Shown one piece after another: positions 4,926-51,600 of a DNA stretch of 64,000 nt; the first letter of the stretch is position 1; each line of letters starts with the position of its first letter. The stretch lies in the IMG/VR virus record IMGVR_UViG_3300044638_007755, one strand, 5' to 3'. This stretch comes from an uncultured virus (IMG/VR IMGVR_UViG_3300044638_007755). Lineage: Duplodnaviria > Heunggongvirae > Uroviricota > Caudoviricetes. A program made the position numbers and the translations under genes. The notes under the pieces are model-generated. The model was not told the DNA's origin. It saw only the letters and a program-made list of their open reading frames with translations, and ran no database searches.

Positions 4926-4927
4926 TC

Positions 4928-21156: not shown

Positions 21157-21273
21157 GACATTTTTTCTTAGAACATAAAGTCATATTTGCTTAAATTCAA
21201 CATTTGTCAATGGGTGTATTAACCATTATTATAGCATAGATAATAACCCTATAAATAGGATCAATATTTCAAG

Positions 21274-22923: not shown

Positions 22924-23465
22924 TGAGCGTTATTCTTCTAAGCAATTTTGTTAGCGAGAGCGAACGAGCCTCACTGCTGGCGTGGTGCGACACCAATGCT
23001 GCGTGCCTCGGAGACGCAAGAACTGCGGACGGCGAGTCGTATTTGTTGCGTAAAATCTCCAACAGCAACGCGGTGGTGGAGGCTGGCGGATTCCCCGAAG
23101 TTGCCTATCAGGTGCAGAGCCGTATCAGGGAGCGGTTCCCGATGCTGGGGGTCTCGCTGCCGCGATTCCTAGACGGTATGACGGTTGGTGTTCTCCTTCC
23201 CGGCGGAGAGTTTCCAGAACACGTTGACCATCATTTCCGGCAGGACGGTCTGGTGTGTGTCGGCGTGAACGCATTGCTTTCCGCTCCAGCGTCAGGCGGC
23301 GTAGTGAGCGTTGACGGCGTGGAGCGAGAGCAGCGGGAAGGAGACGCGCTGGTCTATCTTCTGTCGGAACAGATTCATGGCGTTTCCCAAGTTAATGGCA
23401 ACGTCAAGCGAGTCGTCTGGTCGTGGCGCTTCATGGTCGATCCGGCTGCTTGGGGTGCGACGTGA
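22923..23465 (+). CDS. 2OG-Fe(II) oxygenase (prolyl 4-hydroxylase-like)
   Basis: HVD..GG..H.V..V....R facial-triad pattern; GC-rich. Confidence 0.8.
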   Translation: MSVILLSNFVSESERASLLAWCDTNAACLGDARTADGESYLLRKISNSNAVVEAGGFPEVAYQVQSRIRERFPMLGVSLPRFLDGMTVGVLLPGGEFPEHVDHHFRQDGLVCVGVNALLSAPASGGVVSVDGVEREQREGDALVYLLSEQIHGVSQVNGNVKRVVWSWRFMVDPAAWGAT

Positions 23466-27312: not shown

Positions 27313-28278
27313 ATGCAAAAAATAGCAATACTTCTCTGGCTTTACCATGAAGATTTAGTAACAGAGTTCGTTGACCTGTTGAATCCTTTACAAGATATCT
27401 CGGATATTTATCTAGGTCTCTGTAAAGATAACGATAACTCAAAAACTCTATCTCAATTTAATAATCTAAATAATATTAAAAGTATTAATTATTATTCTAA
27501 TATTGGAGCAGACCTTTATTCTTTTATTAACACTTTACCAAATATAGAAACTGAATATTTTATTAAGATACATTCCAAAAAAAGTTTGTGGGGAGTTAAC
27601 AATAAATGCAACTGGAGAGCAATGCTTTTAGATTCTCTCATTGGAAATAGAGATACTTTAATAGACAACATAAAATATATGAACAAATATAGTTTGGGTT
27701 CTATTGGCTGTAGACCCTTAATCTATAAAGATGTTGGATCAGTACATTCTTATAAAGTTAATGATATTTGTCAGATTATTGGATTAGATCATCCTAAAAA
27801 TAATCTTTTTGTTGGAGGTAATATGTTTATGGGTAGAACAAAAACATATCAAAATTATCTTAATGAAAATACTATAGAACTTTTAAATAACTTATTAGAA
27901 CTAGAATGTGGTAAAATAAAAGAAAACAAAAATGGAACATATAGCCACGCCTTAGAAAGAGTATTGGGTTATATCGGAAATACTCAAAATCTCAAATCTT
28001 GTCCTTTTCATACTTTTAGAATCAAGGTTCTGGACAATCAACTAGTCAACAAGATAAAGTATCTTCATATCAGGAAAATGTACAATAATGAAATATATTG
28101 TATTGAGCAGCCAAATCTATACGGTAGAGTTAATGACGACTCAAAAGATTCAGAAATAATACAAATTTTCTGGAAACATAAACAACAAGAAATATTAGCC
28201 ACATATCAAAAAATTTCTCAAAATACATATATTAATAAAATCCATCTTACCAATAGGGCTAATGATAAGGTGTATTAG
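27313..28278 (+). CDS. RgpF (rhamnan synthesis F)-like glycosyltransferase
   Basis: N.GAD..F, IKIHSKKS..WR..L..L, FVGGNMF.GR, HALER. Confidence 0.75.
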   Translation: MQKIAILLWLYHEDLVTEFVDLLNPLQDISDIYLGLCKDNDNSKTLSQFNNLNNIKSINYYSNIGADLYSFINTLPNIETEYFIKIHSKKSLWGVNNKCNWRAMLLDSLIGNRDTLIDNIKYMNKYSLGSIGCRPLIYKDVGSVHSYKVNDICQIIGLDHPKNNLFVGGNMFMGRTKTYQNYLNENTIELLNNLLELECGKIKENKNGTYSHALERVLGYIGNTQNLKSCPFHTFRIKVLDNQLVNKIKYLHIRKMYNNEIYCIEQPNLYGRVNDDSKDSEIIQIFWKHKQQEILATYQKISQNTYINKIHLTNRANDKVY

Positions 28279-34622: not shown

Positions 34623-34928
34623 ATGAACGAACAGTTATTACTAAATAATATTTACAAGAAATTTCAAACAACAATGATTGGTGCTTTGGCTAGGTTTGAA
34701 GAAAATTTTGGGTTTTTATGGGACAATGATACTAAGGAAGCAGAAAGATTTGATCTTCTATGGGAAGAAACTAGAAATAGTATTTTAAACAATGGAAACA
34801 AACAATCTAGAGCTGCACTAACAGAGATTTCTGACTATATTAACAATAATAATCGAGTTAAACAAAAATATCACTATAAATTTTATTTTGATAAGAACGA
34901 TAACAACAACCCAGGAGAAGGAAAATGA
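34623..34928 (+). CDS. hypothetical protein
   Basis: ORF in operon. Confidence 0.65.
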   Translation: MNEQLLLNNIYKKFQTTMIGALARFEENFGFLWDNDTKEAERFDLLWEETRNSILNNGNKQSRAALTEISDYINNNNRVKQKYHYKFYFDKNDNNNPGEGK

Positions 34929-35830
34929 AAACAAAAACTTTTAAGACTCTTGTAGATAATGGAAACAATGAAAAAGTAGAGAAAGAATTCTTGGTTCGTA
35001 GTCCTTCTTTGAATGACCAGAGAGAGGCCCAGAAGGTATATAATCAAGCTTTTACCGACGCTATTAAAAGTAAGAGTGTCGTTAGGGCTAGACTTGAAGA
35101 TCTTTTAAAAGATCAAGGATTATGGGATGATGAAAAACAGGCTAAGTTCACTGAACTCCAAAAAGAATTGCTTGATGGAGAGAAGAGATTAGCTAAGGGT
35201 GGTTTTAGTCTTAATGAGGCTAAAGATCTGGCCGTTAAGATGAAATCTGTAAGAGATGACATCAGAGACCTTATCAGCGTTAGAACTAGTTTAGATAATC
35301 ATAGCGCTGAAGGACAAGCTGATAATGCTAGATTTAATTATTTAGCATCTGTTTGTGTGGTGTATAGTGATACTAAGCAACCATATTTCAAAGATATGGA
35401 AGAGTATCTAAATAGAGCCACAGAACAGGTGGCTATATTAGGAGCTCAAAATTTGGCTAATATGTTGTATGGTTTGGATAATGATTATGAAAGCAATTTA
35501 CCAGAAAACAAATTTTTAAAGAAATATAAGTTTGTTGATGATAAATTAAGACTAATAGATAAAAAGGGTAGATTGATTGATGCAGAAGGAAGACTGGTTG
35601 ACGAGGATGGTCGATACATTGACGATGCTGGAAATTTTGTTGATAGATATGGTAATAGAGTTAGTAAAGACGGCGATTATATGGTTGAGGCAGAACCGTT
35701 TCTCGACGACAATGGAAAACCAGTCATATTAGATGAAGTAGCTAATGAAGAACAACAACCAGAACCAACTGTATCAGAACCAGAACCAAAGACGGAGCCA
35801 CCAGCTTCAACAGAGCCACCAGCTAGTTGA
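34925..35830 (+). CDS. probable tail assembly chaperone
   Basis: Position; repeated (L/I)(I/V)DxxG(R/N) motifs, Pro/Glu tail. Confidence 0.55.
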   Translation: MKTKTFKTLVDNGNNEKVEKEFLVRSPSLNDQREAQKVYNQAFTDAIKSKSVVRARLEDLLKDQGLWDDEKQAKFTELQKELLDGEKRLAKGGFSLNEAKDLAVKMKSVRDDIRDLISVRTSLDNHSAEGQADNARFNYLASVCVVYSDTKQPYFKDMEEYLNRATEQVAILGAQNLANMLYGLDNDYESNLPENKFLKKYKFVDDKLRLIDKKGRLIDAEGRLVDEDGRYIDDAGNFVDRYGNRVSKDGDYMVEAEPFLDDNGKPVILDEVANEEQQPEPTVSEPEPKTEPPASTEPPAS

Positions 35831-35931: not shown

Positions 35932-38900
35932 ATGGCACAAGCTTTTAATTTAACAGCTCAATTAAATTTGAGAGGTCCTAATAATGTTGGTAAGATTGTA
36001 TCTCAAATAAAAAAACAACTGGGAACAATTAATGCCAATGTTAATATAGCAATTAATCCAGCAGCCATACAAACTGTTACACAACTCAATTCTGCTCTTA
36101 CAACATTAAATACAACTCTTGCTACAACATCAGCTAACGCTACTACAACCGCTGCTGCTGTTAATAGTTTAATGCAAGCCATGAATGCTGCTGCAAACTC
36201 TAATATTAATCAGTCGTTAAATAATGCTTCTAATGCTGTTCAGCAGTTGGGGGCAAATGCTAATGCTGCTGCTGGAGGAGGTGCTGGTGGAGGTGGAGGT
36301 GGAGGGGTTACACAATTACGAACCGAAATGGAAGAGTTCGGAAGACAATCTGCTCTCGCAGTTAGAAGATTTGCCGCTTTTAGTCTTGTAACATCAACAG
36401 TATTTGCATTAACTAATGCTTTTAACCAAGCCTTTAAAGCTTTTATTGATTTTGATAAAGAGTTTGTTAAATTACAACAGGTCACCGGCGAATCTGCTGC
36501 TAGACTACAAAACTTAGCAGGAACTATTACTGAACTTTCTACCAGTCTTGGAGTTTCTTCTTCTCAATTAGCAGTAGTATCATCTACTCTTGCTCAGGCT
36601 GGTCTTAGTGCAAAAGATACAGAAAGAGCTCTTAAGGCTTTGGCTTTGAGTTCTTTAGCTCCATCATTCGACGATATGAATCAGACAGTAGAAGGATCAA
36701 TCGCTTTAATGAGACAGTTCGGTATTAGCGCAGATCAATTAGGTGCTGCATTAGGTTCTGTTAACGCAGTATCTGCTCAGTTTGCTGTTGAATCTAGCGA
36801 CATTATTGCTGCTATTCAGCGTACTGGTGGAGTGTTCGCATCTGCTAGTAAGGGAGTTAGTGAAGGTACTCAAGCTTTAAATGAATTTATTGCAGTATTT
36901 ACAAGCGTTAGAGCTACTACTCGTGAAAGTGCTGAAACTATTGCTACTGGTTTGAGAACAATTTTTACTCGTATTCAACGAGGAAGTACTATAGAAGCCT
37001 TAAAAGAGTTCGGAGTAACTCTCACAGATGCCGAAGGTAAATTCGTTGGAGCATATAAAGCTGTTGAATTATTATCTAGAGGATTAAATAGTATAGATCC
37101 AAGAGATTTAAAGTTTTCTCAGATTATAGAAGAGCTTGGTGGATTTCGTCAAATTGGCAAAGTTATTCCTCTTATTCAACAGTTTGGAACAGCACAACAA
37201 GCTTTGGCAATAGCTCAAGGAGGACAAACATCTTTAACAGAAGATGCTATAGTTGCTCAACTATCTTTAGCTAATCAATTTGCTAAAGTTAGAGAAGAAT
37301 TTGTTGCTATGGTAAGAGAAATTGGAGGAACAGATACTTTTCAAACTCTCGCCAAAGGAGCATTACAACTAGCAAGTGCTTTAATTCAAATAGCAGATAG
37401 TGTAAAGGGGGTTTTGCCAGTTCTTGCTGTGATTACTGCTGTTCGTGGGGCTGGAGCACTGAGACAGTTTGGAAGAGGTTTTGTTGGAGGTATGAGAGGA
37501 GGACAACAAAACGCTGCAGCAGGAGGTATGATACGAAAGTATGCTATTGGAGGACAAGTACCAGTAGCTCTTATGCCTGGAGAAACTGTTGTTTATCCCG
37601 ATATGGTGAATAGAATTGGAGTACCAAAACTAAGACAATTAAATCATGCTGATAAAAAAATGGCTAGGGGTGGTGGAGTTGGCTTGGTTCCAGGTAAAGG
37701 ACGTACTGATAGTTTCAAAACAACATTACCAGTAGGTAGTTTTGTTATTAGAACAGATGCTACAAAAGCTTTGGGTGGTCCAGTAGGAGTCATGAAAGAA
37801 GCTCGATATCAGGGTGGTGGATATGTTCAGCGTTTTAGGAAAGGAACTCAAAACAAACTACAAAAACGAACCCAGAGAACCCATTTTGGACCTAAAACTC
37901 CTTTGAGTCCAGAAGAAGCTAAATTAGCTGAAAGTATGGGAACAGGATCTTTACGTGTTGTAGCAGGTAAAACTGAAAGACAGATTAATTTTCAACCGAA
38001 TATAGATTCTTTAATTAATCAAAGACTAAGAAGAGGAACCCAAAAAACAGGAGTACCTAAAACAGACTTATTAAAAGATATCTCACAAAGATCGGCTATA
38101 GAGCTCTTTGAAGCTAAAGGTATACCAGCAACTATTTTCAAACAATTAGTTGCTTCTAAAAAACTAGACGGATTAAAAGATGCATTATTAAAGGGAGTAA
38201 AAAGTAAAAAAGTACCAGCATTATTAAAGTCGGATTCTGAACTAGATTTTATCCTAAAAGATTTTATTAAACCATACTTAGGAAAAGTTAAAACATCTGC
38301 TGGAAGCTTATGGGATGAATTAGTACAATATCAAGCACTTACTAATCCTAGAGAAGTAGGAGGAAGAACAACATTACCAACAGTCAAAAAATCATTAAGT
38401 AAAACACTCGGAGAGACATTGGCTTTTGGTGGTTTAATTCAAAAATTTGGTAAAGGTTCTTTTAAGCCTTTGGAAAGTATGGGTAAATCAGATTTACTAA
38501 AAGAAGCTCTTGACAGCGGACTTTTAGAGAGAGTACCAACAGGATTTAGAGAAAGTATAGATAAAAGAAGTAAATCATTTGATCAAGTTATATATGATAA
38601 ATTATTAAAAGACTTAGGAGAGAAAAGAGGATCAGCAGAAGTCTCTGCCACACGAACATCTAAAAGAGCAAAAAAAAGAAATATAGCAGTTGTCGGATTG
38701 GGTGGAGAAAAGTCTTCTACTGAATTAACTACGCCAGGAATAGAAGCTAACCTTAAAAAGGGCACAAGGGCATTTCCAGGAGTTCCAGCAACTTTACAAA
38801 CAGGATCATTACCTCCAGATGTAGCTAAAAAAGTACAAGCTATTATTCGTAATCAAAGTGAAAGAATAGCTTCTGTAGTTGGAAAATTAATAGCAGGTAA

Positions 38901-41900
38901 AGCTGGATCAACACCAGTTACAGATAAAAAACAAATTAGAGCTATTGTAGGTAAACAACTAGATAATTTATCTGGACTATTGTTCGAGAGTGGTCTTGCT
39001 GTTGCTGGGGCTCCATATGATCCTGCGTCTAAAGCTATAGACTTTAGCAAAGGACTAGGCGATAAATTAGGTACTATGTTTGGCGTAGATCCAAAAGCTC
39101 TTACTGACGCTACAAATCAAGCAACAAAAGAAGTAGCTAAAACCAAGGTTGCTAAAGGACAATTCGATAGAGGTCGTAAAGCTGCTTTAGTATCTAAAAG
39201 ACAACAGAAAAGAAATTTTGGTGGTTTTATCCAGAGATTTGCAAAAGGATCATCAACTCCAGTTCGCAATCTCGGATATATCGATGGAGACGTATTAAAT
39301 GATCCCGCCAATGCCGAAATTGTTCGTAAAGAAATGGAAAGACTGGGAATTACAGATATTCATAAATATAAATCTCATCTGTCAACTATGTCGGCTGCAA
39401 GAAGAAAGTCCGGAGATCTTAGTAGATTAAGTACCATATATGGAGTTGCAGGATCCGGGAAAAGTACATTTGTTCAAGGAGGCGCAAGAGCAGCCGAAGC
39501 AGATAATGCAAAATTACGCAAAACTAATAGATATCCAATTTTAACAGAAGAAGATGTATTAAGATCTAGTCAAATTATAGATTCTACATCTGTTGCTGGT
39601 CCCAACCAAAAAGAAGTACTAAGTCAATCAGATAGAATTGTTAATTTGTCTTCTAGGACCAAAGAATCTCAAGAAGTTTTAAAAGGTAATAGAAAAAGTA
39701 GAGACTTAACAGGTAAGGGATTATTTGGTCGTAAACCAGGAGCCACCAAGGATGCATCATTAGATAGCGGGCCGGGGGAAGCATATATTGCTGCTAGTGA
39801 GGTGTCTGGTGTTAATCCCAAAAAGGTTGCAACCTATGCAATAGGTCCAAACTTTAGCAAAAAAAGAACTAGTCAACCAAAAGTGAGATCTCCAGAAAAA
39901 ACGGGTTTATTCTATGGTAATTTTGGTCCTACTACTTCTGGACATTTGAGCGTTGTAGAAGAAGCCAAGAAAAGAGGAATTAAACCTGAAGATTTTGTTG
40001 CTTTAGTTAGTGGAGATACTCCTATAGACTATGCTAGTGCTGATGAACATTCTAAAAGAACAGCTATTTTTCCACAAACTTCAAAAACCGGACCTTCTAG
40101 ACTAGGAATGGCAAGAGCCACGTTCGGAGCTGTGGGAGCTAATGTAGCAGCAATGCCGAAGGGGAGTGGTCCTGGTAGTATACCTAGTGCATTTAAGGTA
40201 GGAGACGACTCATATATTGTTCCAAGAGGACAAAAAGATATTGCTTTTGCCGGAGACGAAAAAGGAGAAGGTTCTCTAAATCAGTATACAAAATCAGGAT
40301 ATTCAGTAGAGTCTTTACCCAGAACAGGAGGTATCAGCGGAACAGATGCTAGAAATGCCATAATGAATAATGATATGGTAGCAATGAAAAAATTGCTGTC
40401 ACCAGAGGGAATGTCTTATGTACAACAACATTTAGAAACCATACAAAAGAGACCCGGTATATTAGATAGTATTTTACAAAGATTTCAGGAGAACAGTCAA
40501 TCAGGAAAAGGATCTGCTGGAAGACTATCTTCGGTTAAAGAACAACTCTCGAAACTACCAGCCAGAAAAAGTAAAACCACACCTCCCGAAGTAGTGGAGC
40601 AAATGGAGAGTTTGAGAAAAGAAAGAGACAAACTAACTAGTAAAGTAGGTAGAAGACCAGCTAGAATGTTATCTAGATTAGAGTCTAGAAGACCAAAAGC
40701 TGTTGGTGGAATTATTCAAAGATTTGGAAGAGGTGGACTAAGTAATCGTTTGGGTGTTTTTGATTTTGATATGACAACAGGAGAAGGTGCACAACAAGAA
40801 ACACCAAGCTTGTCTGGATTTAAAAATCCTGACCTAGCTGTTCCAGACATACTAGGAGCTAAGCCTACTGGTGTGATTAAGTTAATGAAACAATATGGAG
40901 CTAGTAGACTATTAACTGCTCGAAGTGGTGGACCAAAAGGAGAAATGACAACAGCACTAGGATCCTTTTTTAAGAAAAATGGAGTATATTTACCATCTAA
41001 TAGAATTGAAACATTAGGAGATCAAGTTAACAACCTTTCTACAGCAGAAAAAAAGGCCAGATCTTTATATGATTTGGTTAAAAAATATGGGGGAGTTGAT
41101 TTTTTTGATGATCATCCAGACAACATTAATGCCGCTAAAATGGTGAGGGGTGTTGATGCTCGTAGAGTTAAATTGAGAAAGGCTGCAGGAGGAGAAATAC
41201 CAATTATCGCCCAAGAAGGCGAATATGTAGTTAATAGAAAATCAGCACAATCTTTTGGATATGATAATCTTGCTAAAATTAACAAGTATCATAGTGGTGG
41301 TAGGGTTGGTAGAGTACAGAAATTTGCTAGTGGAGGTCAGCCCAAACTAGACACTCTAGGAGCTACTGCGACAGGATTAAGTCCTAGAGCATTTCAAATA
41401 TTTGAAAAAACACTATTTAAAGTTAGCGATTTATTTAATGGAATGGGAGCAAGAACACTAAAAACCACCCAAGCTATGGATATGATAGCAGCAGTATCTC
41501 CTCAACTAGCTGCTGATATACAATATAATGGAATGGTCCATAAGAGAACAGCAACAGCACAAGAGTCGGTGGCTGTTCGCTATGCTACATTGATGCAACA
41601 GCTACAGAAAACTAATCTTACACAACAGCAGTTGGATAAGATCACTGCAGCGTATTCTAATACAATCCAAGCAGACACCAACGCTAAAAACTTATCTATC
41701 ATGCAGACAAAAAGCTTAGGTAGTAAAATAGCATCAGCTTGGAATAAGGCAAGTGGAATAGTATCTCAAGCAGCTTCGTCTTTTGCTGCTACTTTGGGTA
41801 AAAAAACAAGTACGGCCACACCTTCACCAGCAACCAATCCTCAACCGTCAGGCATTAGTCCAGCACAGCAAGTAGCTCAATTTCAGTCCCAAGGAATACA

Positions 41901-44900
41901 AGGAGCAGCTTTAAAACAAGCTATGCAAAATGCTGGTTATGGTAAAGGGGGAGTTAATAATCCAATTGCCCAACAAGCAATTTCTCAAGTACAGGGTATG
42001 TCTGCCCAAGCTCAACAAGCTCAAACACAAAGACCATCCATGATGGGTCGTATTGGACAAGGTGTTAGAGGAATAATGGGCGGCCAAGCTAGTATGTCTA
42101 TGGGATTTGCTTTACCTATGTTAGCAAGCTCATTAACTAGCGAAGAGCCAGTATCAGCAGAACAAGCTAAGAGTAATGCTACACTAGGAGGAGTAGCTAC
42201 AGGTGCTGGTATAGGAGCATCTTTAGGAGGACTGCCCGGAGCTCTTATTGGTGCTGTGGGAGGACTAATTACTGGTATAGATGCTGGAGCTAAAGCTGCA
42301 CGTCAATTCGCTATAAATATAGCAAGAAACAAGATAGAAGATAGTGGTGAAAAACTAGCAAAAACTTTTGAGGAAATTAATAAACAGAGTTCAGCGACTC
42401 CAGCTCAATTAGCTTCTTTAAATACTGCTTTAAAAGCTAGTATAAACGCTGCTTTAGAATCTGGAACACAAGCTTTACCAAAAGCCAGCTTATCTCAACT
42501 ATTGACCGAAGTTGGAGTAGCGGCTCTAGGTGGAGGTCAAACGTCCACCAAAGAAAATGTTGATACTAGAGCAGCTATTTTCGAACAAAAAGGATTTATG
42601 GGACTTATAAAAGCTATGAGAGGTGGACAAGATGTAGAAAATAGTATGTATAGAGATATTGCTCCTACGCTAGCCAGAGAAACATCCAAAGGATATGCTG
42701 TTGCTGCTAGTCAAGCAAAGAGCGTATTTGAACAACAGTTTAAACAAGGACAATCCATAGAAGACTTAATGAATGGACCAGAATGGAATAAGCAAGCAGA
42801 AGTATTAGCAAGATCTAATGCCGCTATTCAAGAGCAAATATTGTTAATACAAAATCTTAGTGGTGTGTCTGAGACGGAGAAAAAAGCTCGCATAGACAGT
42901 ATTATTGCTACAGAAGCTGAAGGTCAAGCAAGAAAACAGTTCTCAGAAGTTAAAATTGCTGAAGATTTAAAGAAACTACAAAAGGATATCAATAATCTTT
43001 CTTTTTCATTCAACAGAATGCTTGGAAACATGGATGCCGCAGTTCAATCATCGGTAGCCAATCTTGCTAAATTAGACGAATCATTATCCTTATCGTCAGC
43101 TTCTTTATCTGGCGGGGCTAAAGTTGGAGGATCATCTTCTGGCGTTCAGAATACATTAGATGTACTTAAAAATCCACAAGGATATAGTGAGAGCCAAAAG
43201 AACACAGCATTCAGTAGAGCAGCCAGCCCATTTGGGTCTCAGGCCGGTAATATAGAAAAAGTACTTAAAGCTGGTTCTGGATTAGAATCTACTATTTTAG
43301 GAACAATTAATAAAACTCTTTCGGGAACACCAAAAGGAGAAACTCAAGAAGCAGTTACAGCAAAGATAGAATCGGCTATTAGAGGACAGCTCAAAGACTT
43401 ACAATTACCTCCGTCTCTTGCCGATAAATTATCCAAACAAATAGGACAGTCTGTTGGAAAACTTAGACAAGATGGAGAAGACACTGTTGACTATAGTCAA
43501 TTAATAGAAAGTGTACCAGAATTATCTAAAACTATAGACTTATTTAAAAATACTGCTGACCAAGCATCTAAAGCTATGGAGTTTAATAAACAAGCTTTTG
43601 ATAGATTGTCTGAGGCTACTAATCAACAAATAGACCTAACTGTAGAATCTAATGCTCGCACAAGAAATGCTCAAAACATTCTAGCTAAAGGATCTATGGA
43701 CTTAAATAAAGCACTAGGAATGAATGTTTCGTTAGGAGCACGTAGATCAGCTATTGAAAGTCCAATTAGGTCCATGACAGGTGGTACCACAGATCCGTCT
43801 GCTATAGGTATGAATTATAACAGACTAGAAGCACAAAGACAACAATTACAAACGGGTAGGAATCAAGCTGCTGCCAGTGGTGATGTTGGAGCAGTAAGAG
43901 CATTTGATAATCAGCTAGCACAAACAAATACTTCTTTAAGAGAAAATATAGATGCTTTAAAGGGTATGGCAGATAGTTCGGAATTAGCATCAGCAGCACT
44001 AGATGAAATAGACAAAGCACAAAAGCGTCAACAGGCTGGTGTGGGTTTCATGGAGAAGTTGGTAACATCTACTCCTAAAGAATTAGCAAATATGAATCAG
44101 GCTTTTGCTAGACTAGATGCAAATATGAAAGGAATAGCTGTTGGAGGAACCAATCCTGAACAAAGAAAACAAAGTTTGGAAATGTTTCAAATGATAGCTC
44201 CTTTTCTAGGCGATCAAGAAAAAGGATTACAAGCAAATGTCCTACAAAGTATGCTACAAGAATCTGGTGTAGGCATATCTCCAATGTTACAACAAGTTCT
44301 TGATGGTATGAGAAATCCCACTGCTGATCCTCAACAGGCTCTAGCTATACAAACATATCAAGAAGCTACTCAGAAACAAGCTGAGGCTAATTTGCAATTA
44401 GCAACTATGAATACTAATTTAGCTAATGATATTAGTACAAAAACAGGTAATGCCGTAGCAGCAGCTATTCAAAGCAATAATATTAAATTTGAACAAAAAC
44501 AATTAGACGATTTAATAAGTAGAATTAATATAGTTCCAACAGACGTAGTCCCGGCCGTTGGTAAGGCCGACGGAGGTCTTATTTATAAGGCTGTTGGAGG
44601 AAGCATATTTAAGCCAAAAGGCACAGACACCGTACCAGCGATGTTGACTCCTGGAGAGTTTGTTGTCAATAGATCTGCAACACAAGCTAATTTGCCACTA
44701 CTGAAATCTATAAATAATGGATATAGTAAGGGAGGAAAAGTTAAATATTTGGCTGGTGGAGGATATGTTAGCAGTAATATTCTTAAAAAAGATGTTGATG
44801 TACTTAATCCAAGTTTGAATACCGATCAAGATATATCTAATGATAATTTACCAATTTATAATCCAGAATTATTTCCTACAACAGACGCTAAGAAATTTTC

Positions 44901-47900
44901 TAAACTTTCCGGATTTATCTCTTCTACTACTAGATCATGGAGTTATGCTGGTATAGTTAACGGATTATCCACTTATCTTAATGAGCTTAAGAAATCTGGA
45001 GGATCTAGTGATTATTGGGGCGGACAAGAAATAAGATCTGCTGCTGATGTTAATGACTATAATACTAAAATTATAGCTAATGGTGGACCAGACATGAGCA
45101 AGTTTCCTATCGATTTCATGACAGGTAGTACAGAAGAATTTGGGTATGCTCCAAGTTTTCAATTAGAAACTAAAAGATCTGGTTTTGGTAATCGGTGGAT
45201 GCTTCCCAGTATTAGTTCGTTAAAAGACTCAGGTAATGCAACAGCTGCTGGTAAACTAGAAAAATCAATAAAAGCACAGACACTTGTTTCCAATATTCCT
45301 TTTGATGCAGAAATTTTGAATAAGATTATATCTAACTCAATTTCAACCATTATAGGATCAGCAAAATTAAGAAAGGGAAAGTCAGCAGCAGATATTACAA
45401 AATATTCAGAAAAAAAATTATTAGACATTAATGAATCATCAGATTATGGATATGTAGGTAATCAATTAGACATTCTAGATGCAGCCAGATCCGCTAGTTC
45501 AATAGCAAAAGTTTTTGAGCCAATAGATATTATTAAAAATAAATTGCAAGATAAGCCATCATCACTTGGAAGTGCAGTCTTAGGGATATCCGATGTAGCA
45601 AAATTATATCAGATGAGTGCTGGTGGTGGATTTAGATTTGATCCTAACGCTATAGATCCAGATAAATATATGGGAGGAGTTTTTGTATCTCCTAATAAAA
45701 AAGAAAGTACTGTTATAGGATCCAACTTTAAAGGTAATGTTTTAGCTGGTGCTGCTGGAGCAGGTAGTGGTGGAGGTAGTAATGGGGTAGGTTTTTCTGA
45801 AAATTCAATGGCTGTTGGACTTCCTACAGAAGCTACTATTGGTAGTAAATTACTCAATACACAAATGTTAGATGTTCTCAAAACAAAAGCAACAGAATAT
45901 GAAACCGCTGTAAATACCGCTTATAGTGAATTAGATACATATATCAAAAATCCAGATAATTTTAATAGTACTAGCACACAAACTCAAAAAGCAAGTAATA
46001 TTAGTGGATTATTACGTAGAATATATGATAGTAATTGGCCAGGATTATATATAAAACTACCAACAGATAATTTAAACGATGAATGGAAATCTAAAGGAAC
46101 TAATGGTTTAGCGATCTTTAAACCCGATCTAGCAAGTATATGGGAAGCAAAAATTGCCCTAGCATTAACTACTCCAAATAAAGATCTATATAAAAAAGCT
46201 AAAGGATATAAGCTAAATGGAGAGCCCTCTCTAGTAAAAATAGGCAATCAAAGTCAAGAAACCATAGAGGCGGCTGGTGAAGAATACTTAGACGGGGTTA
46301 AATCTTTTCCGTGGATCGGAGATATTAAACTAGCTGAAGAATTTTCTAACAATATTTTAAGACTCGAACAAGAAGCAAGTCAAAAGAGTTTTGTTTCAGC
46401 TTTTAAAGTAGATGAACAACCCATACCAGAAAAAGTAACGCTCGATAAAATTACACTAGATAAATTAGGTCCTGGGTTTTCTAAAGACACCAAGGCAGAA
46501 TTTGGTTTTCAATACAGAAATATTGAGGTACCTAAACTCTCAAGAAATACGGGATATGCTCCTCCTCAAAACGGAGAGATTCTTAAGGGAATAATAGTAT
46601 CAGCAGGTGGCGCTCTAGACACTTCTGTACTGAATCCTTTTCTAGGAGAAGACATAACTGCTGGTAAAGGAAATATTTTTGCAAACAGTCTTGATGAAAT
46701 AAAACAAAAATTAATTGATACTTATACTAAATATTTTGAGGGAGATCAAGCAGCTTTTACCAGTTTTTCTTTGGCTACATTAGCAACACCACAGACATGG
46801 ATGACAGATTTGGAAAAATTAAATGCTTATACTACAGAAGATGGTCTTATTACAAATCCATGGTTTCCAAAAATATCTGCAGATGCATATAAGAATCAGC
46901 TACTAACATCCCCTGGTTCTGGTGGACAAGCAACAACCATACCAGGAGCAACAATATCTATTGGAGATAAACTCAAAACAGCACAACAATTAATCAATCA
47001 AATTATTGGTCCGAAGATCGGAGTTATAAGAGCATTTGGATATGGTCTCTCTCCATTAAGCGTTCCCGCTCAAATTGGACAATATGCTGAAGGTCTTATA
47101 TCTTTATCAAAATCTTTTGGAAGTAAAATTGTTGGTCAAAATGGATCTGTGAATCCTAATCTTGCTGATGTATGGGGTCGTATTACTGCTGTTGGAGAAA
47201 CTTTTAAGTTTTTAGCTAAAGATGATTTATTAGGATTAAGCAATAAGATTGGACTAGGCCAATCAGCTATGGGTGTTCCAGATACTGGAGCCATATCATC
47301 ACAGGTTGCTCAATATGCTCAATTCTTAGCAACACAAGGAACATTCTTGGCTGGTGTTAGTGGTCAAGCCCAGCAGACTTTAGAAAAACAAGTTACTGGA
47401 GATCAACAGATTGCTAGTACCTCTTTGAGTGGCGGTAAATCACAAAGTATATCAGATATATTTAAGGGAGCATCCGATACAACTGTTGCTAAAGATGGTA
47501 AAATCCAAAGCAAAGAAGCTACTCCACCAAAGACCTTATTAGATTTAGGTAAGAAGGTTTTTAATCCATATAATTCATTTGCTAATCCAAACGATAGAGC
47601 TAGTCTTATAGATTATTTAATGTCACAAATTAAGGATCAGGTAAATCCTTATTTTAAGTCTGGTGTTACAATATTAAGAAATTATTTATTGGGCATGGAT
47701 ACTTTGATAAGTGGAGCAACAGTTAATGAACAAGATTTGGATGTTAACTACAAAGGCGCTAATAGTGCTTTATTAGCATTAACTAACGGGGAATTTGGCG
47801 CATTACCTAATGTTCAAAAAATTAAAGAACTAGCAGCATTTAGAGCTGCTCAACAACAAGCTAAAAAAGACAAAGCAAAGCAGGAAGCTCAAAATCCTGG

Positions 47901-48558
47901 TCAAGTAGCCGCTATGGCAACAGGTGGCGTAGTATATGCTAGTAATGGAACGCTAGTTAACTATCAACCAAGAGGTACAGATACTGTTCCGGCGATGTTA
48001 ACTCCTGGGGAATTTGTGGTCAATAGGTCTGCTACTCAGAAAAATCTACCTTTACTTCATGCTATTAATAGTGGTGGAACCCAAGGATTAAATCGTGGAG
48101 GTATTGTTAATTATTTACAAAGCGGTGGTATTATACTGCCACAGTATCATGCTGATGGAGCAGTTGCTAGTTCAACCAATAGCGTTGTTGGTGGAGGATC
48201 AATTAAGGTAGATGGATCATCTGCTGCTCGTGGACTAGAGTCTGCCCTAACCGTTGGAACAAATGCTCTCAAACAAGTATTACAAGGTTTTGGTATTTCT
48301 CCAGAATCTATAACTGCTATTAATAGCTTTGTAACAGGATTACAAAAGGTTAGTGAAGTACTAGCAAATATAAATATAACTCCTGAAGTCAAATTTACTG
48401 GTAGTGTTGACGTTAATGTTAGGGGAGCAGAAGGTTTAACTGGCCCAATGAGAGATTTAGTTAATGGAGCAATTAATAATGCTATGACAAGACTACAGTC
48501 TGCTAACAGCGGAGCTAAACTAGAAGTTCCACAAGGAGATTTTACTAGTGGAAAATGA
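35932..48558 (+). CDS. giant tape measure protein with embedded kinase, nucleotidyltransferase and HAD domains
   Basis: TP901-like TMP core (aa about 130-480), two GTDTVPAMLTPGEFVVNR motifs, GVAGSGKST, FYGNFGPTTSGH, VFDFDMT. Confidence 0.9.
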   Translation: MAQAFNLTAQLNLRGPNNVGKIVSQIKKQLGTINANVNIAINPAAIQTVTQLNSALTTLNTTLATTSANATTTAAAVNSLMQAMNAAANSNINQSLNNASNAVQQLGANANAAAGGGAGGGGGGGVTQLRTEMEEFGRQSALAVRRFAAFSLVTSTVFALTNAFNQAFKAFIDFDKEFVKLQQVTGESAARLQNLAGTITELSTSLGVSSSQLAVVSSTLAQAGLSAKDTERALKALALSSLAPSFDDMNQTVEGSIALMRQFGISADQLGAALGSVNAVSAQFAVESSDIIAAIQRTGGVFASASKGVSEGTQALNEFIAVFTSVRATTRESAETIATGLRTIFTRIQRGSTIEALKEFGVTLTDAEGKFVGAYKAVELLSRGLNSIDPRDLKFSQIIEELGGFRQIGKVIPLIQQFGTAQQALAIAQGGQTSLTEDAIVAQLSLANQFAKVREEFVAMVREIGGTDTFQTLAKGALQLASALIQIADSVKGVLPVLAVITAVRGAGALRQFGRGFVGGMRGGQQNAAAGGMIRKYAIGGQVPVALMPGETVVYPDMVNRIGVPKLRQLNHADKKMARGGGVGLVPGKGRTDSFKTTLPVGSFVIRTDATKALGGPVGVMKEARYQGGGYVQRFRKGTQNKLQKRTQRTHFGPKTPLSPEEAKLAESMGTGSLRVVAGKTERQINFQPNIDSLINQRLRRGTQKTGVPKTDLLKDISQRSAIELFEAKGIPATIFKQLVASKKLDGLKDALLKGVKSKKVPALLKSDSELDFILKDFIKPYLGKVKTSAGSLWDELVQYQALTNPREVGGRTTLPTVKKSLSKTLGETLAFGGLIQKFGKGSFKPLESMGKSDLLKEALDSGLLERVPTGFRESIDKRSKSFDQVIYDKLLKDLGEKRGSAEVSATRTSKRAKKRNIAVVGLGGEKSSTELTTPGIEANLKKGTRAFPGVPATLQTGSLPPDVAKKVQAIIRNQSERIASVVGKLIAGKAGSTPVTDKKQIRAIVGKQLDNLSGLLFESGLAVAGAPYDPASKAIDFSKGLGDKLGTMFGVDPKALTDATNQATKEVAKTKVAKGQFDRGRKAALVSKRQQKRNFGGFIQRFAKGSSTPVRNLGYIDGDVLNDPANAEIVRKEMERLGITDIHKYKSHLSTMSAARRKSGDLSRLSTIYGVAGSGKSTFVQGGARAAEADNAKLRKTNRYPILTEEDVLRSSQIIDSTSVAGPNQKEVLSQSDRIVNLSSRTKESQEVLKGNRKSRDLTGKGLFGRKPGATKDASLDSGPGEAYIAASEVSGVNPKKVATYAIGPNFSKKRTSQPKVRSPEKTGLFYGNFGPTTSGHLSVVEEAKKRGIKPEDFVALVSGDTPIDYASADEHSKRTAIFPQTSKTGPSRLGMARATFGAVGANVAAMPKGSGPGSIPSAFKVGDDSYIVPRGQKDIAFAGDEKGEGSLNQYTKSGYSVESLPRTGGISGTDARNAIMNNDMVAMKKLLSPEGMSYVQQHLETIQKRPGILDSILQRFQENSQSGKGSAGRLSSVKEQLSKLPARKSKTTPPEVVEQMESLRKERDKLTSKVGRRPARMLSRLESRRPKAVGGIIQRFGRGGLSNRLGVFDFDMTTGEGAQQETPSLSGFKNPDLAVPDILGAKPTGVIKLMKQYGASRLLTARSGGPKGEMTTALGSFFKKNGVYLPSNRIETLGDQVNNLSTAEKKARSLYDLVKKYGGVDFFDDHPDNINAAKMVRGVDARRVKLRKAAGGEIPIIAQEGEYVVNRKSAQSFGYDNLAKINKYHSGGRVGRVQKFASGGQPKLDTLGATATGLSPRAFQIFEKTLFKVSDLFNGMGARTLKTTQAMDMIAAVSPQLAADIQYNGMVHKRTATAQESVAVRYATLMQQLQKTNLTQQQLDKITAAYSNTIQADTNAKNLSIMQTKSLGSKIASAWNKASGIVSQAASSFAATLGKKTSTATPSPATNPQPSGISPAQQVAQFQSQGIQGAALKQAMQNAGYGKGGVNNPIAQQAISQVQGMSAQAQQAQTQRPSMMGRIGQGVRGIMGGQASMSMGFALPMLASSLTSEEPVSAEQAKSNATLGGVATGAGIGASLGGLPGALIGAVGGLITGIDAGAKAARQFAINIARNKIEDSGEKLAKTFEEINKQSSATPAQLASLNTALKASINAALESGTQALPKASLSQLLTEVGVAALGGGQTSTKENVDTRAAIFEQKGFMGLIKAMRGGQDVENSMYRDIAPTLARETSKGYAVAASQAKSVFEQQFKQGQSIEDLMNGPEWNKQAEVLARSNAAIQEQILLIQNLSGVSETEKKARIDSIIATEAEGQARKQFSEVKIAEDLKKLQKDINNLSFSFNRMLGNMDAAVQSSVANLAKLDESLSLSSASLSGGAKVGGSSSGVQNTLDVLKNPQGYSESQKNTAFSRAASPFGSQAGNIEKVLKAGSGLESTILGTINKTLSGTPKGETQEAVTAKIESAIRGQLKDLQLPPSLADKLSKQIGQSVGKLRQDGEDTVDYSQLIESVPELSKTIDLFKNTADQASKAMEFNKQAFDRLSEATNQQIDLTVESNARTRNAQNILAKGSMDLNKALGMNVSLGARRSAIESPIRSMTGGTTDPSAIGMNYNRLEAQRQQLQTGRNQAAASGDVGAVRAFDNQLAQTNTSLRENIDALKGMADSSELASAALDEIDKAQKRQQAGVGFMEKLVTSTPKELANMNQAFARLDANMKGIAVGGTNPEQRKQSLEMFQMIAPFLGDQEKGLQANVLQSMLQESGVGISPMLQQVLDGMRNPTADPQQALAIQTYQEATQKQAEANLQLATMNTNLANDISTKTGNAVAAAIQSNNIKFEQKQLDDLISRINIVPTDVVPAVGKADGGLIYKAVGGSIFKPKGTDTVPAMLTPGEFVVNRSATQANLPLLKSINNGYSKGGKVKYLAGGGYVSSNILKKDVDVLNPSLNTDQDISNDNLPIYNPELFPTTDAKKFSKLSGFISSTTRSWSYAGIVNGLSTYLNELKKSGGSSDYWGGQEIRSAADVNDYNTKIIANGGPDMSKFPIDFMTGSTEEFGYAPSFQLETKRSGFGNRWMLPSISSLKDSGNATAAGKLEKSIKAQTLVSNIPFDAEILNKIISNSISTIIGSAKLRKGKSAADITKYSEKKLLDINESSDYGYVGNQLDILDAARSASSIAKVFEPIDIIKNKLQDKPSSLGSAVLGISDVAKLYQMSAGGGFRFDPNAIDPDKYMGGVFVSPNKKESTVIGSNFKGNVLAGAAGAGSGGGSNGVGFSENSMAVGLPTEATIGSKLLNTQMLDVLKTKATEYETAVNTAYSELDTYIKNPDNFNSTSTQTQKASNISGLLRRIYDSNWPGLYIKLPTDNLNDEWKSKGTNGLAIFKPDLASIWEAKIALALTTPNKDLYKKAKGYKLNGEPSLVKIGNQSQETIEAAGEEYLDGVKSFPWIGDIKLAEEFSNNILRLEQEASQKSFVSAFKVDEQPIPEKVTLDKITLDKLGPGFSKDTKAEFGFQYRNIEVPKLSRNTGYAPPQNGEILKGIIVSAGGALDTSVLNPFLGEDITAGKGNIFANSLDEIKQKLIDTYTKYFEGDQAAFTSFSLATLATPQTWMTDLEKLNAYTTEDGLITNPWFPKISADAYKNQLLTSPGSGGQATTIPGATISIGDKLKTAQQLINQIIGPKIGVIRAFGYGLSPLSVPAQIGQYAEGLISLSKSFGSKIVGQNGSVNPNLADVWGRITAVGETFKFLAKDDLLGLSNKIGLGQSAMGVPDTGAISSQVAQYAQFLATQGTFLAGVSGQAQQTLEKQVTGDQQIASTSLSGGKSQSISDIFKGASDTTVAKDGKIQSKEATPPKTLLDLGKKVFNPYNSFANPNDRASLIDYLMSQIKDQVNPYFKSGVTILRNYLLGMDTLISGATVNEQDLDVNYKGANSALLALTNGEFGALPNVQKIKELAAFRAAQQQAKKDKAKQEAQNPGQVAAMATGGVVYASNGTLVNYQPRGTDTVPAMLTPGEFVVNRSATQKNLPLLHAINSGGTQGLNRGGIVNYLQSGGIILPQYHADGAVASSTNSVVGGGSIKVDGSSAARGLESALTVGTNALKQVLQGFGISPESITAINSFVTGLQKVSEVLANINITPEVKFTGSVDVNVRGAEGLTGPMRDLVNGAINNAMTRLQSANSGAKLEVPQGDFTSGK

Positions 48559-48612: not shown

Positions 48613-51600
48613 ATGAGGAAAATTATGATCAATTCCCCAATATACATATTCGATAGTATAGGATGTAAATTTTCTATACTAAATGGTAATTTTTTAATCG
48701 GCCAATCCCTATCTGGCTATAATAGTTTATCGTCATCTCATGTTGGTTGTTATATTCCATATTTGGTCAGAAGTGGTTCTTCTTGGGAGGTTGGTGTTGG
48801 TTATATAACCAATAATTCTGGTGGAATTGTAGTAGAAAGAACTAAAATAGTTCGATCTTCTAATCAGGATAGTATTGTCTCTTTTGACAATTATGATAAA
48901 TCAGAGTTTTATGTTTTTGCAAATGAGAGTAATTTTAATGTTGGTTTTAATAATGTTATTGTAAAGAATAATGATTTCGTTATTGATAAAATTCAAGCAA
49001 CCTATTTAGTAGACTCTTCGGATAAGACAGTATATGCCACACTACCCAGCATAGAGAGTACTAAAAATCTAATCATAGAACTTAAACTAGTTAGTGGTAA
49101 TAATTTAGTTTATATCTCCAATCCAGCTGGTAAAATATTTGCTACTCTAAGCACAGATAATTCATATATCCGTATTGTATCAGACGGTGTCAACTGGGTT
49201 GGTTTGAATACGACAAATAATGTAGAGCTTAAATCTCTATCGTCTGATGATTTGATGTTTAGTGCGATGTCTGGGATTAATGCTAGTCCAACGTTATCTT
49301 TTCAATATAATACAGGAAGTAATAATATTGGAGGAGCAGAATTATATTACGGTTCGGGTAATAAGGTTCTATTCGGAGACGATGTTGAAACTAGTGCCCA
49401 CCATATTATTCCAGTCTCTGGTTCTGCTAATACGGTATTTAATAATGATAATGCTAATAGTAATTTTATTGTAGAAGGAAGCGGTACTAGAAATCTATTT
49501 TTTGATTATCGAGGAAGACTTGGACTTAATATTCCCTCTGGAAGTACCCCTGATACTATTTTCCATATAGTTAATACAACTTGCAGAGAGGGTATTAGAC
49601 TAGAAAATAGAACATCTTGCCACCCAGCTAACATAACACTATACCATAAGCCCGTTTCAGCAATAACAGCTAACTCCGTAGTAGCAGAAATCAACCTATC
49701 TGCAAAAAACTCATTAGGCAACCAAACAGATTTTTCTACTATACAATCAAAAGCCATAGATAATACTGCTGGAACTTCAAAAGGTCAGTTTAATATTGTT
49801 GTAGCAACAACGGATGCTGCTGGTACTGGAATCCAAACTATATCCACAGATCCAGATACTACTATGATTGGATATAGTGGGGTTAATTTAACAGTAAACA
49901 ATGGTGGATCAGCTAGCTTGGGTTATAGTAATAGTAAAGTTATTTCTACTAGTAATGCTATTACTATACAAGCGCCAACAATTAACTTAAATTCTAGCAA
50001 TATTGTTCTTGGAACAGGAGTAGCGACTAATATAACTGTTCCAACATTATATGCTACTAATCTTGAAAGTAACAGAATAAAGATCAACGGTATTTCACAA
50101 GATAGTATTTTAAGTATTAATAGTTCAGGAAATATCTCTGCTGGTAGATCTGTTCGATTGCCTATCACAGAGAACATGATACTAACCACTACAACAAGTG
50201 GAGCTATCACAGGAATATATAGTACAACAGACTATTTCCTTACCAATGGAGATGTACTATGGAATCAATATGACGATAGGTCTTGTTCTGTGGCTGTTAG
50301 ACAAGTTATATTTCCAAGTGCAGTTCCGGCCCAAGAATTTATCGTCGGAGACCAAGTAGAAATAAATATTTCTGGAACTAAATATTATCGGAATATTACT
50401 GATATTGAAATAGATAATAACAATATAGTAGCATTATTACTTAATCAGAACGTAACATCAGATTCATTTGCTAATGCAACCATACAATCTGTTAGTCAGG
50501 GTGGATATTTATCCATATCTAAAACAGTAGACGATCCGAATATTTCTGATGCTACTAGCAACACTCTTAGTATTCGTCCATTAACAGATACCGTATTTAA
50601 TACCAAGCAAAAAGATATTAATTTTTCAGTATACGGTGTGGATCCTACACCAGCATTAACTGTTAAAGCAAATTCTGGCAGAAGTACTGTACCATCTGGA
50701 TTATTTCATCCTTTTGCTAGTCAAAGACCACAATGCGAACCTTGCGTATTATATTATCCTCCAAATGCAAGTATCGCTCCTTTTCCAATTGTTGTAAATA
50801 GTGGAGGAAGTGGTCTTAGTACCCAACATATCTCAGCTAATTTTAATAGAGCTGCCTCTGGTATTTTTTCTGGAATGCTCACCTCTGTTGGAACAAATGG
50901 TTTACCGTCTTTTTATGGTACATATGATCAAAACGGTAACGTAGCAGAATGGGTAGAAGATGCTAGTGCTACTTCTACTGGAGGTTCACAGTTTGTGGCT
51001 GGTGGTTCTTGGTTAACAGAGATTGATGGTACTATTGGTGCCAGTGGACTAAAGAACATAGAGTCATTACCAAGAATAAGTGGTTATGAACACGTTGGTT
51101 TTAGAGTGGCAAGTCAATATAACTTAACAGATATAACAACCATAGCAGACGATCTAGATATAAATTTCGTTTCCGTGTCAAATCCAAATAACATATCAGA
51201 TGATGGATTATTTTATCTCTTACAAGATGATTCATATATTGCATTTGAATTACCAAATCTTGGTTCTGTAAATAAAAACTATAGAATAGGTAAATACGAA
51301 ATAACAAATGATCAGTACTGTATATTTTTAAACGCTGTAGCAACAGCTAATGATAGAGGTCTTTATAAGACAAAAATGTCTACTGAACCAGTTGGAGGCA
51401 TTTTAAGAAGTGGAGACGGATCCATCAATCCATACGAGTATACTGTTAAGTCTAATATGGGTAATAAGCCGGTTGTATTTGTAGACTATCTTAGTGTAAC
51501 CAGATTCACTAATTGGTTGCATAATGGAGCTCCAACAATTAATGTTGTTGATGTAGATACAATCTTAGATTTTGGGGCCTATGATATTTTTCCAATTGGA

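Follow-up and report, generated by a model that had tools for sequence, protein, structure and literature searches.

What does a short peptide mark when it recurs along a giant tail protein: a border between exchangeable parts, a cutting site or a tether? The question is raised by a DNA stretch of 64,000 nucleotides (nt) from an uncultured virus of the Caudoviricetes (IMG/VR record IMGVR_UViG_3300044638_007755), referred to below as the window, in which one open reading frame (ORF) on the plus strand, 35932–48558, runs for 4,208 codons (12.6 kb) without a stop. Its product is a tape measure protein (TMP) of the TP901/lambda type, with core-domain scores above the curated thresholds: PF10145 matched amino acids (aa) 198–403 with 83.4 bits (cut-off 33.2; E = 2.5e-23) and TIGR01760 with 86.8 bits (cut-off 28.8), bearing out the identity proposed in an initial annotation made from the sequence, and phrog_28 matched at E = 3.4e-27. 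The best explanation that we can offer for the locus as a whole, and one that we consider probable, is a giant TMP built from cassettes that are exchanged at peptide joints and that would be ejected into the host as pre-made effectors.

By their sequence, the first ~620 residues look like a complete small lambda/TP901-type TMP, consisting of the core, a hydrophobic and Gly-rich stretch and a module of ~60 aa with the core D(T/S)VPAMLTPGEFV(V/I)N (the GEFV module). This module recurs three more times, with folded cassettes inserted between the copies: four are present (aa 549, 1762, 2907 and 4025), flanked by joint-like GG motifs on both sides, and the full order is core, module 1, cassettes 2–5, module 2, a 1,065-aa Ala/Gln-rich tape, module 3, a 1,035-aa acidic cassette, module 4 and the C-terminal tail. 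A degenerate second unit (aa 573–628), conserved beside the module in 70 relatives, adjoins copy 1, and homology to two jumbo-sized relatives (G002 and G003) and to near relatives resumes at copy 2. In the following list, pattern and joint hidden Markov model (HMM) refer to the strict peptide pattern and to a profile of its copies, and pLDDT is the predicted local distance difference test score of the AlphaFold models.

35932–48558, plus strand: TMP ORF, 4,208 aa, a single open frame with matches to PF10145, TIGR01760 and phrog_28.
36523–37140, plus strand: TP901-type TMP core domain, aa 198–403 (PF10145).
37507–37815, plus strand: GEFV module copy 1 with PGETVV at aa 549, and at its N-terminal flank joint 1, GGMIRKYAIGG (nt 37522, aa 531–541).
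37816–37845, plus strand: joint 2, GGYVQRFRKG, aa 629–638 (pattern; joint HMM 13.7 bits).
37846–38427, plus strand: cassette 2, aa 639–832, rare (2 relatives only; AlphaFold pLDDT mostly below 50).
38428–38457, plus strand: joint 3, GGLIQKFGKG, aa 833–842 (pattern; joint HMM 19.1 bits; model pLDDT below 50).
38458–39219, plus strand: cassette 3, aa 843–1096, predicted folded alpha/beta module (pLDDT 84–95, model residues 220–460).
39220–39249, plus strand: joint 4, GGFIQRFAKG, aa 1097–1106 (pattern; joint HMM 25.4 bits; first residues of the segment 4 model disordered).
39262–39879, plus strand: cassette 4a, P-loop kinase-like domain, aa 1111–1316, with the Walker A Lys at aa 1177 (fold match to 6epg_B).
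39880–40689, plus strand: cassette 4b, HIGH-superfamily nucleotidyltransferase (NMNAT/NadD-like) with a C-terminal helical hairpin, aa 1317–1586 (predicted fold, profile and motifs).
40705–40737, plus strand: joint 5, GGIIQRFGRGG, aa 1592–1602 (pattern; joint HMM 17.4 bits).
40738–41166, plus strand: cassette 5, putative HAD-like phosphatase, aa 1603–1745 (four motifs, alignment A2).
41167–41307, plus strand: GEFV module copy 2, aa 1746–1792 (EGEYVV).
41308–41337, plus strand: joint 6, GRVQKFASGG, aa 1793–1802, the C-terminal flank of GEFV module 2 (joint HMM 9.8 bits).
41347–44541, plus strand: second Ala/Gln-rich tape region, aa 1806–2870 (Ala + Gln 23%).
44542–44781, plus strand: GEFV module copy 3, aa 2871–2950, with DTVPAMLTPGEFVV at aa 2907.
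44782–47886, plus strand: large acidic cassette between modules 3 and 4, aa 2951–3985 (isoelectric point (pI) 6.0, aromatic-rich).
47887–48141, plus strand: GEFV module copy 4, aa 3986–4070, with the core motif at aa 4025.
48142–48555, plus strand: C-terminal tail, aa 4071–4208, sharing 37% identity with the C-terminal end of the G002 TMP.

The strict pattern G[GR]x[IV][QR][RK][FY]xxG occurs in five copies (aa 531, 629, 833, 1097 and 1592) and gave 0 matches in 2,000 shuffles of the TMP; looser copies stand at 44572, 44731, 47923 and 48097. All ten motif positions listed in the initial annotation proved correct to the base, with the listed copies in frame in the one ORF, and the contrast it had drawn between basic segments and Ala/Gln-rich tape is reflected in the composition: the inter-motif segments have a pI of 9.7–10.2, 14–19% Lys + Arg and 10–14% Ala + Gln, against 8–10% and 23–24%, respectively, in the flanking tape regions. 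Family-wide, the consensus of 11 residues is GG-x-(I/V)-Q-(K/R)-(F/L)-(A)-x-G-(G/S/T), with V or I at position +3 in 220 of 220 unique instances and Q in 88%, and modules usually start 3–8 residues past it. The joint HMM scored 8 bits or more at 298 places in the 111 giant relatives (at least one in 97 of the 111) and at 0 in shuffled copies; since it was built from the same proteins, only the shuffle control carries weight. The four canonical joints of the window are identical at 20–25 of 33 nt, and the conserved thing is therefore the peptide, not a DNA site.

Four independent lines of evidence (fold, library search, breakpoints and close relatives) agree that the joints are module borders. 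The AlphaFold model of segment 4 (aa 1097–1591, 23-sequence alignment) reached a mean pLDDT of 89.7 and a predicted template modelling score of 0.85, and only residues 1–3 and 493–495, which belong to the joints, scored below 50. In the model of aa 629–1106, aa 833–1096 were predicted with confidence (pLDDT 84–95) from ~15 aa past joint 3, the joint itself scoring below 50. For the two confidently modelled cassettes, the predictions thus show the joints as borders of independently folding units, a coincidence of linkers and domain borders that the initial annotation had anticipated. It had also called the segments globular, which holds for aa 833–1096 and 1097–1591 and not for aa 629–832, where pLDDT is mostly below 50. 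The alignment behind the model of segments 2 and 3 (A4, 15 rows) contains one row, a fragment of P0115, that is aligned to segment 3 and not to segment 2. An alignment of 41 fragments over aa 629–1760 (A3) was misaligned, the repeated joints having anchored segment 4 rows wrongly, and was not used for folding.

When we searched 1.84 billion representative proteins with aa 573–1760, we obtained 115 matches (95 at E ≤ 1e-10, 82 at E ≤ 1e-30). The dominant match extended from query positions 517–525 to 1017–1020, which corresponds to joint 4 to joint 5, and matches to cassette 3 extended from 251–274 to 526–538, that is, from joint 3 to joint 4. Breakpoints were located by comparing the TMP with 110 relatives that are 1,500 aa or longer (698 high-scoring segment pairs). 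Between aa 560 and 1830, 59% of the 157 starts and 72% of the 256 ends of these pairs fell within −20 to +30 of a joint, windows that make up 20% of the positions; most of the other starts lay at GEFV module 2.

Close relatives exemplify these exchanges. P0003 (83% identical) is without exactly aa 1596–1734, the HAD cassette, and in P0024 aa 1109–1586 are replaced by 180 unrelated residues; joint 5 is the left edge of both the deletion and the replacement. P0022 is 96% identical over aa 1–646 and 90% over aa 1735–4205, with unrelated sequence in place of aa 647–1092 and a cassette 4 that is only 45% identical; it is a recombination mosaic. By these sequence comparisons, relatives are shown to insert, delete, replace and reorder cassettes at the joints. 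The module-swap junction that the initial annotation had considered is thereby strongly supported by breakpoints, near-relative swaps and varying order, and the region is not invariant among related TMPs, cassettes being lost or replaced at joints in all three of these proteins. The replacement cassette of P0024 (its aa 1168–1347), which stands where the kinase–transferase is in the window, starts with ...VYHGTG.

Across the 110 relatives, cassette order varied (segment 4–segment 3 in 6, segment 3–segment 4 in 3, segment 3–segment 5 in 4 and segment 4 alone in 83), an abundance of segment 4 that reflects selection and gives no population estimate, because the relatives were gathered by similarity to aa 560–1800. 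The cassette combination of the window is unique among them. Cutting the 111 giant TMPs at joints and modules gave 653 segments in 165 clusters, 129 of them singletons. Four connections within the region that contigs of four runs gave at 85% likeness (e.g. 37302 to 47979 and 37768 to 42955) were not counted as cassette polymorphism: their sides comprise only 21–28 letters, and connections of this kind come from repeats or other organisms.

What do the cassettes encode? The enzyme motifs that the initial annotation had noticed in two segments are present, in aa 1097–1591 and aa 1592–1745. Segment 4 contains the Walker A motif GxAGSGKS, followed by GxFxPxTxGH and ISGTxxR. In 23 sequences whose identity goes as low as 26%, the Walker A lysine (K81 in segment numbering) is invariant (23/23), and G233, P237, T239, G241, H242, S373, T375 and R378 are invariant or conserved in at least 90%. 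By its predicted fold and its motifs, cassette 4b is a nucleotidyltransferase of the HIGH superfamily (NMNAT/NadD/PPAT class). Its model matched NadD (4rpi_A) with Z = 14.7 (root-mean-square deviation 2.5 Å, 154 aligned residues) and PPAT, NMNAT and NadM with Z = 13–14, Foldseek also returning NadM, NMNAT and PPAT; TmcAL (5y0n_A) matched with Z = 10.8 over 211 residues that include the hairpin. Searched against PDB, the profile of the cassette 4 alignment matched MJ0951 (3gmi; E = 4.2e-9) and, over the transferase core, 9x6f (E = 1.1e-4). Against Pfam (E ≤ 0.1), PF01467 was found in 8 of the 23 members (best 4.7e-7) and PF16581 in 17 (best 2.3e-7); the window's own scores were below the cut-offs, and single-sequence PDB searches of segment 4 gave no match at E ≤ 1. 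The best structural match of the kinase domain was a modest one, zeta toxin 6epg_B (Z = 8.3, 153 residues). At least 80% of cassette 4 is covered in 95 relatives, of which 87 are at least 2,000 aa long, 6 are of 1,500–1,999 aa and 2 are shorter; as 93 of the 95 thus reach 1,500 aa, it is essentially a TMP-borne enzyme.

The entries 9X6F and 9X6H are NadR-like Bas30_86 of the phage NARP3 pathway (PMC13464706). Like Bas30_86, segment 4 joins an NMNAT-type HIGH nucleotidyltransferase and a P-loop kinase in one phage polypeptide; unlike in Bas30_86, the order is reversed, the kinase is unmatched to the RNK domain of NadR and the pair forms part of a structural protein. Membership in the NadR family was rejected because the kinase precedes the transferase, the reverse of the NadR order, and shows no specific likeness to RNK; the NadR structures 6gye (Z = 11.0) and 8x7f (Z = 10.7) matched the transferase only. 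Our leading guess for the pair, by analogy, is cofactor synthesis from nicotinamide riboside via nicotinamide mononucleotide to nicotinamide adenine dinucleotide (NAD+), which could blunt an NAD+-depleting defence.

Cassette 5 carries DFDMT (aa 1611–1615), LTARSGG, K1708 and FFDD (aa 1724–1727), and in alignment A2 (17 sequences) D20 and T71 are nearly invariant and K117, D135 and D136 invariant. Sub-threshold matches to HAD families of Pfam were obtained for 7 of its 10 stand-alone relatives. Its look-alikes in the ESM Atlas are viral HAD clusters (0.88–0.90), including the T5 dNMPase and 'Swiss army knife' RNA-repair HADs, which we take as leads only. Single-sequence PDB searches of segment 5 found no match at E ≤ 1. 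With the kinase, the nucleotidyltransferase and this HAD-like segment, several unrelated enzymatic domains are found in one giant phage protein.

Cassette 3, with 26 relatives, has no Pfam match, and a profile search with segments 2 and 3 against PDB gave nothing significant. The model of these two segments had no match in PDB with Foldseek at E ≤ 0.001; the best VIA wide match reached Z = 5.8 over 48 residues, and the best match in BFVD had E = 0.016 at a TM score of 0.06. These fold searches used the whole 478-residue model with its disordered half, so that a match may have been missed; the ESM Atlas returned no usable match for segment 3. The acidic cassette has 8 relatives, no Pfam match and no PDB sequence match at E ≤ 1, and other relatives carry different cassettes of ~1,000 aa at this place (clusters 4, 9 and 10). 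Elsewhere in the family, P0040 contains an ADP-ribosyltransferase cassette (aa 1156–1370; PF03496, 32.7 bits against a cut-off of 23.4), and precomputed Pfam labels in other relatives name staphylococcal nuclease, EF-hands and SHD1. A tblastn search of 50,697 cultured-phage records with the whole cargo region (1,291 aa) found no match.

Where does the joint come from? An HMM of 349 GEFV instances of the family matched lambda gpH at residues 730–792 (27.5 bits, E = 1.1e-10; best of 1,000 gpH shuffles, 8.5 bits). Using tblastn, we found the last module (aa 3990–4208) in TMPs of 58 cultured-phage records, including Mycobacterium, Gordonia, Nodularia and Ralstonia phages; among the 30 rows listed, 24 read 'tape measure', 4 were unannotated and 2 read 'endolysin', the latter being RefSeq twins of records annotated as tape measure. 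Many siphophage TMPs thus ordinarily carry GEFV as their C-terminal module. The (F/Y)AxGG half of the joint resembles, by eye, both flanks of the gpH module (FATGG and YATGG), and the full joint is not detectable in gpH (joint HMM ≤0.4 bits, insignificant). We read the joint, from these resemblances, as the probable multiplied flank of an ancestral C-terminal GEFV module. The second tape region is 32% identical to G002 aa 1451–2698 and has 64 relatives in cluster 3. G002 (L011, 224 kb) and G003 (L012, 187 kb, with terminal repeats) are two complete jumbo-sized relatives, whose TMPs of ~5,270 and 5,390 aa have seven GEFV modules each and share 64% identity over their full length.

What, then, could such a protein do? 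A TMP fills the tail tube and is the first to leave it. Because of this position, the cassettes would enter the host envelope or cytoplasm with the TMP, before any phage gene is expressed, and would act there as pre-made effectors, as the RNA polymerase fused to the TMP of Thermus phage P23-45 does; in the tail they would be stored unfolded or extended. P23-45 gp96 is a 5,002-aa TMP with an N-terminally fused virion RNA polymerase; virions contain this enzyme, and pre-early genes are transcribed by it (Chaban et al. 2024, PMC10770324). The window's protein is likewise a giant TMP with a non-lytic enzyme in the same polypeptide, that of gp96 acting in the cytoplasm before phage expression. It differs in that gp96 has one N-terminal enzyme, with no repeated joint or exchange described in the available text, whereas the present TMP carries, at internal positions, several cassettes that belong to other enzyme classes; no polymerase family was found among the Pfam, PHROG and NCBIfam matches of the TMP, and its N-terminus is an ordinary TMP core.

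Three further systems invite comparison. Sle1 effectors of actinobacterial contractile injection systems are TMP-related and domain-swappable (PMC13277306). They share with the present protein a TMP-related scaffold in a tail-like tube, from which the exchangeable functional domain of Sle1 is ejected, but belong to a bacterial nanomachine and have, in the text available, a single functional domain and no repeated joint, whereas the carrier here is a phage TMP. Polyvalent proteins are giants that combine several enzymes and are believed to enter the host together with the DNA, with a variable repertoire that includes ADP-ribosyltransferases (Iyer et al. 2017, PMC5512222). Their MPTase peptidase domains are thought to process them, whereas here the carrier is a TMP and a peptide joint delimits the modules; 'tape measure' occurs 0 times in a term search of the available text of that paper. 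Among the Pfam and NCBIfam matches of the window's TMP at E ≤ 1, about half of the protein being without a recognisable family, there was no MPTase or other peptidase family. Lambda gpH is matured to gpH* and gpHC by a cut in a Gly-rich region, and gpH* forms a trans-envelope channel (PMC12617516). The GEFV module is homologous to gpH 730–792, and gpH is cut close upstream of it; unlike gpH, which has one module and no cargo, the protein described here has four modules, and the flank is multiplied as a stand-alone joint.

Several points weigh against delivery of working enzymes. That the particles contain the cargo and eject it, and that it is active, is a prediction by analogy with P23-45, whose enzyme is N-terminal, whereas the cargo here lies inside the TMP. 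A module of 55 kDa is not expected, when folded, to fit the lumen of the tube, which is a few nm wide; it would have to be stored unfolded or extended, or elsewhere. The NAD+ reading is weak because the domain order is the reverse of that in NadR and the best kinase match, zeta toxin, has a Z of only 8.3; moreover, it seems that the few enzyme copies carried by a virion could not rebuild a metabolite pool. The window's cassette 5 has no Pfam match, and its profile search against PDB returned E = 0.11 or worse (best HAD match, 0.24); it is classed as a putative HAD-type phosphatase by motifs, together with the sub-threshold matches of its relatives. Cassette 2 has no Pfam match and did not fold in the AlphaFold model, and cassette 3 is without a recognisable fold in the PDB and BFVD searches made. 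The selection bias in the abundance of segment 4 belongs on this side too.

How the joints work is a separate matter. A serious alternative, though one that we hold to be somewhat unlikely, is that they are uncleaved hinges or docking strands. The cassettes would then stay tethered and act at the envelope pore, the peptide would serve assembly (chaperone or tube binding, or pairing of TMP copies), and its repetition would also supply microhomology for recombination. The joints are predicted to be disordered in the monomer models and are conserved as protein, not as DNA, both in keeping with a tether, and the (F/Y)AxGG half seen by eye at both flanks of the gpH module fits as well, the joint HMM not being significant there. 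The authors of the P23-45 study propose a tethered enzyme at the pore (PMC10770324). Against a tether, we identified no binding partner, and tethered cytoplasmic enzymes would require the whole chain to cross the membrane.

That the joints are proteolytic sites, as the initial annotation had also considered, so that cleavage at every GGx(I/V)Q(K/R)F, in tail maturation or after ejection, frees the enzymes, appears rather unlikely. The precedents come from two phages: the GEFV match in gpH lies just downstream of the Gly-rich region in which gpH is cut (PMC12617516), and the T5 TMP, pb2, is cut after R1127, which separates a muralytic enzyme domain that stays in the tail (PMC10038345). In addition, basic residues often precede the joint, as in KRNF-GG and RPKAV-GG. 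However, according to the available text of PMC12617516, the lambda cleavage site and protease are not known; the insignificant joint HMM score on gpH, the lack of any match of this HMM in pb2 and the lack of a GEFV HMM match at the T5 cleavage region also speak against processing, as do the lack of a peptidase family among the Pfam and NCBIfam matches of the TMP and the eleven conserved residues, which exceed a typical protease site. T5 pb2 differs further in that its cargo is a cell-wall hydrolase; the likeness of FVPR-AEGG to the joint is one by eye, neither HMM matching pb2 at R1127. The general statement of the initial annotation that TMPs are often proteolytically processed is overstated.

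The most far-reaching version, which we regard as doubtful, would be an 'effector integron' in which the joints are both recombination points and release sites, cut at maturation or ejection, so that the tail injects a strain-specific cocktail of free enzymes ahead of the genome. If this were true, the kinase–adenylyltransferase would restore NAD+ or another nucleotide cofactor and, together with a phosphatase and two further modules, would pre-empt abortive-infection defences for which any phage-encoded gene would come too late.

It is more improbable still that the cassettes are not delivered at all and act in the producer cell, serve as length spacers or are trimmed during tail assembly. 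Folded domains are hard to square with a narrow lumen, and cassette content is highly variable and in part unrecognisable, both of which would suit this view. On the other hand, the catalytic motifs of segment 4 are invariant or nearly so in 23 sequences as diverse as 26% identity; segment 4 is found almost only in giant TMPs, whereas a producer-cell enzyme would be expected as a free gene; and the ADP-ribosyltransferase of P0040 is of the classic injected-effector type.

The sequence is, moreover, found elsewhere in the same form. It is 100% identical over 714 aa on two other viral contigs (L001 and L002) and over 3,108 aa, up to the contig end, in a third record (G001). Contigs with 0 differences from four independently deposited lake-water metagenome runs cover the joints; one of them (X6 record 18) spans 37281–39309. 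PF10145 is carried by 45 of 45 relatives of 2,429–7,122 aa. An assembly chimera, or separate genes misread as one, can be dismissed, as nothing but the unusual ORF length favours it, and the absence of a stop across 12.6 kb, the three contigs with identical sequence, the joints crossed by error-free contigs from four further runs and the core domain in all of these relatives contradict it. At one place outside the cassettes, 36270–36305 (TMP aa 113–126, AAGGGAGGGGGGGV), contigs of all four runs break off, with loose ends to the left and to the right; the depth of this bin is 50–520 compared with ~5 elsewhere, and it is a Gly run common to, or variable among, many co-occurring phages.

Phage counter-defence is usually viewed as a matter of early gene expression, and proteins of the virion act sooner. 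To our knowledge, few routes by which virion proteins do so have been described: head-packaged polyvalent proteins, the T4 Alt protein and virion RNA polymerases. As far as our literature searches show, a multi-cassette TMP is not in print: we found no description of one at the level of listings and abstracts. The nearest published cases are P23-45 gp96 and Sle1-type effectors. In the explanation that we favour, a structural protein needed by every long-tailed phage would have been turned into a carrier for exchangeable enzymes with a recognisable joint, and because the joint is recognisable, TMP cargo is easy to find (110 giant relatives, 165 module clusters). If delivery holds, such TMPs would be a large unexplored reservoir of first-minute effectors and a naturally occurring model of how tails can be loaded with proteins. 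The homology of the GEFV module to gpH also offers a route to the cleavage site and protease of gpH.

The phage is uncultured and comes from lake-water metagenomes. At least half of the sampled words of the stretch occur in 14 of 24 listed public runs, and no RNA run is among the 24. No cultured phage is close: the terminase is 24–28% identical to those of Bacillus siphophages, and the TMP core 25–33% identical to those of Rhodococcus and SPbeta-like phages. Gene order runs in one direction, with the terminase (11694–13715), portal (13774–15975) and capsid (18003–19013) ahead of the TMP. Two ORFs (34623–34928 and 34925–35830) precede the TMP and two of 1,172 and 817 aa follow it, and family searches returned no family match for the neighbours, apart from the domain named below. 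Neither the tail type (sheath or not) nor a maturation protease was recognised, most neighbouring ORFs being without a family. The 1,172-aa ORF (48613–52131), directly after the TMP in a distal-tail position, has an FGE-sulfatase-like domain at aa 886–1034 (E = 3.4e-11).

The window differs in character towards its left end. Positions 1–6300 have a GC content of 0.42–0.44, compared with 0.33–0.36 in the rest, and a strongly negative GC skew. No ORF in them exceeds 253 aa, whether the standard code is applied or any single stop codon is read as sense; neither an Rfam family nor a tRNA was found, and there is one small tandem repeat only. In or beside the structural block lie two nucleotide-sugar epimerase-like genes and one RgpF-like (rhamnan synthesis) gene (6377–7306 on the minus strand, 9405–10400 and 27313–28278 on the plus strand). 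Collagen-like, tail-fibre-like ORFs with N-terminal fibre motifs occupy 19819–23465 and account for the GC peak of 0.506 at 22–24 kb.

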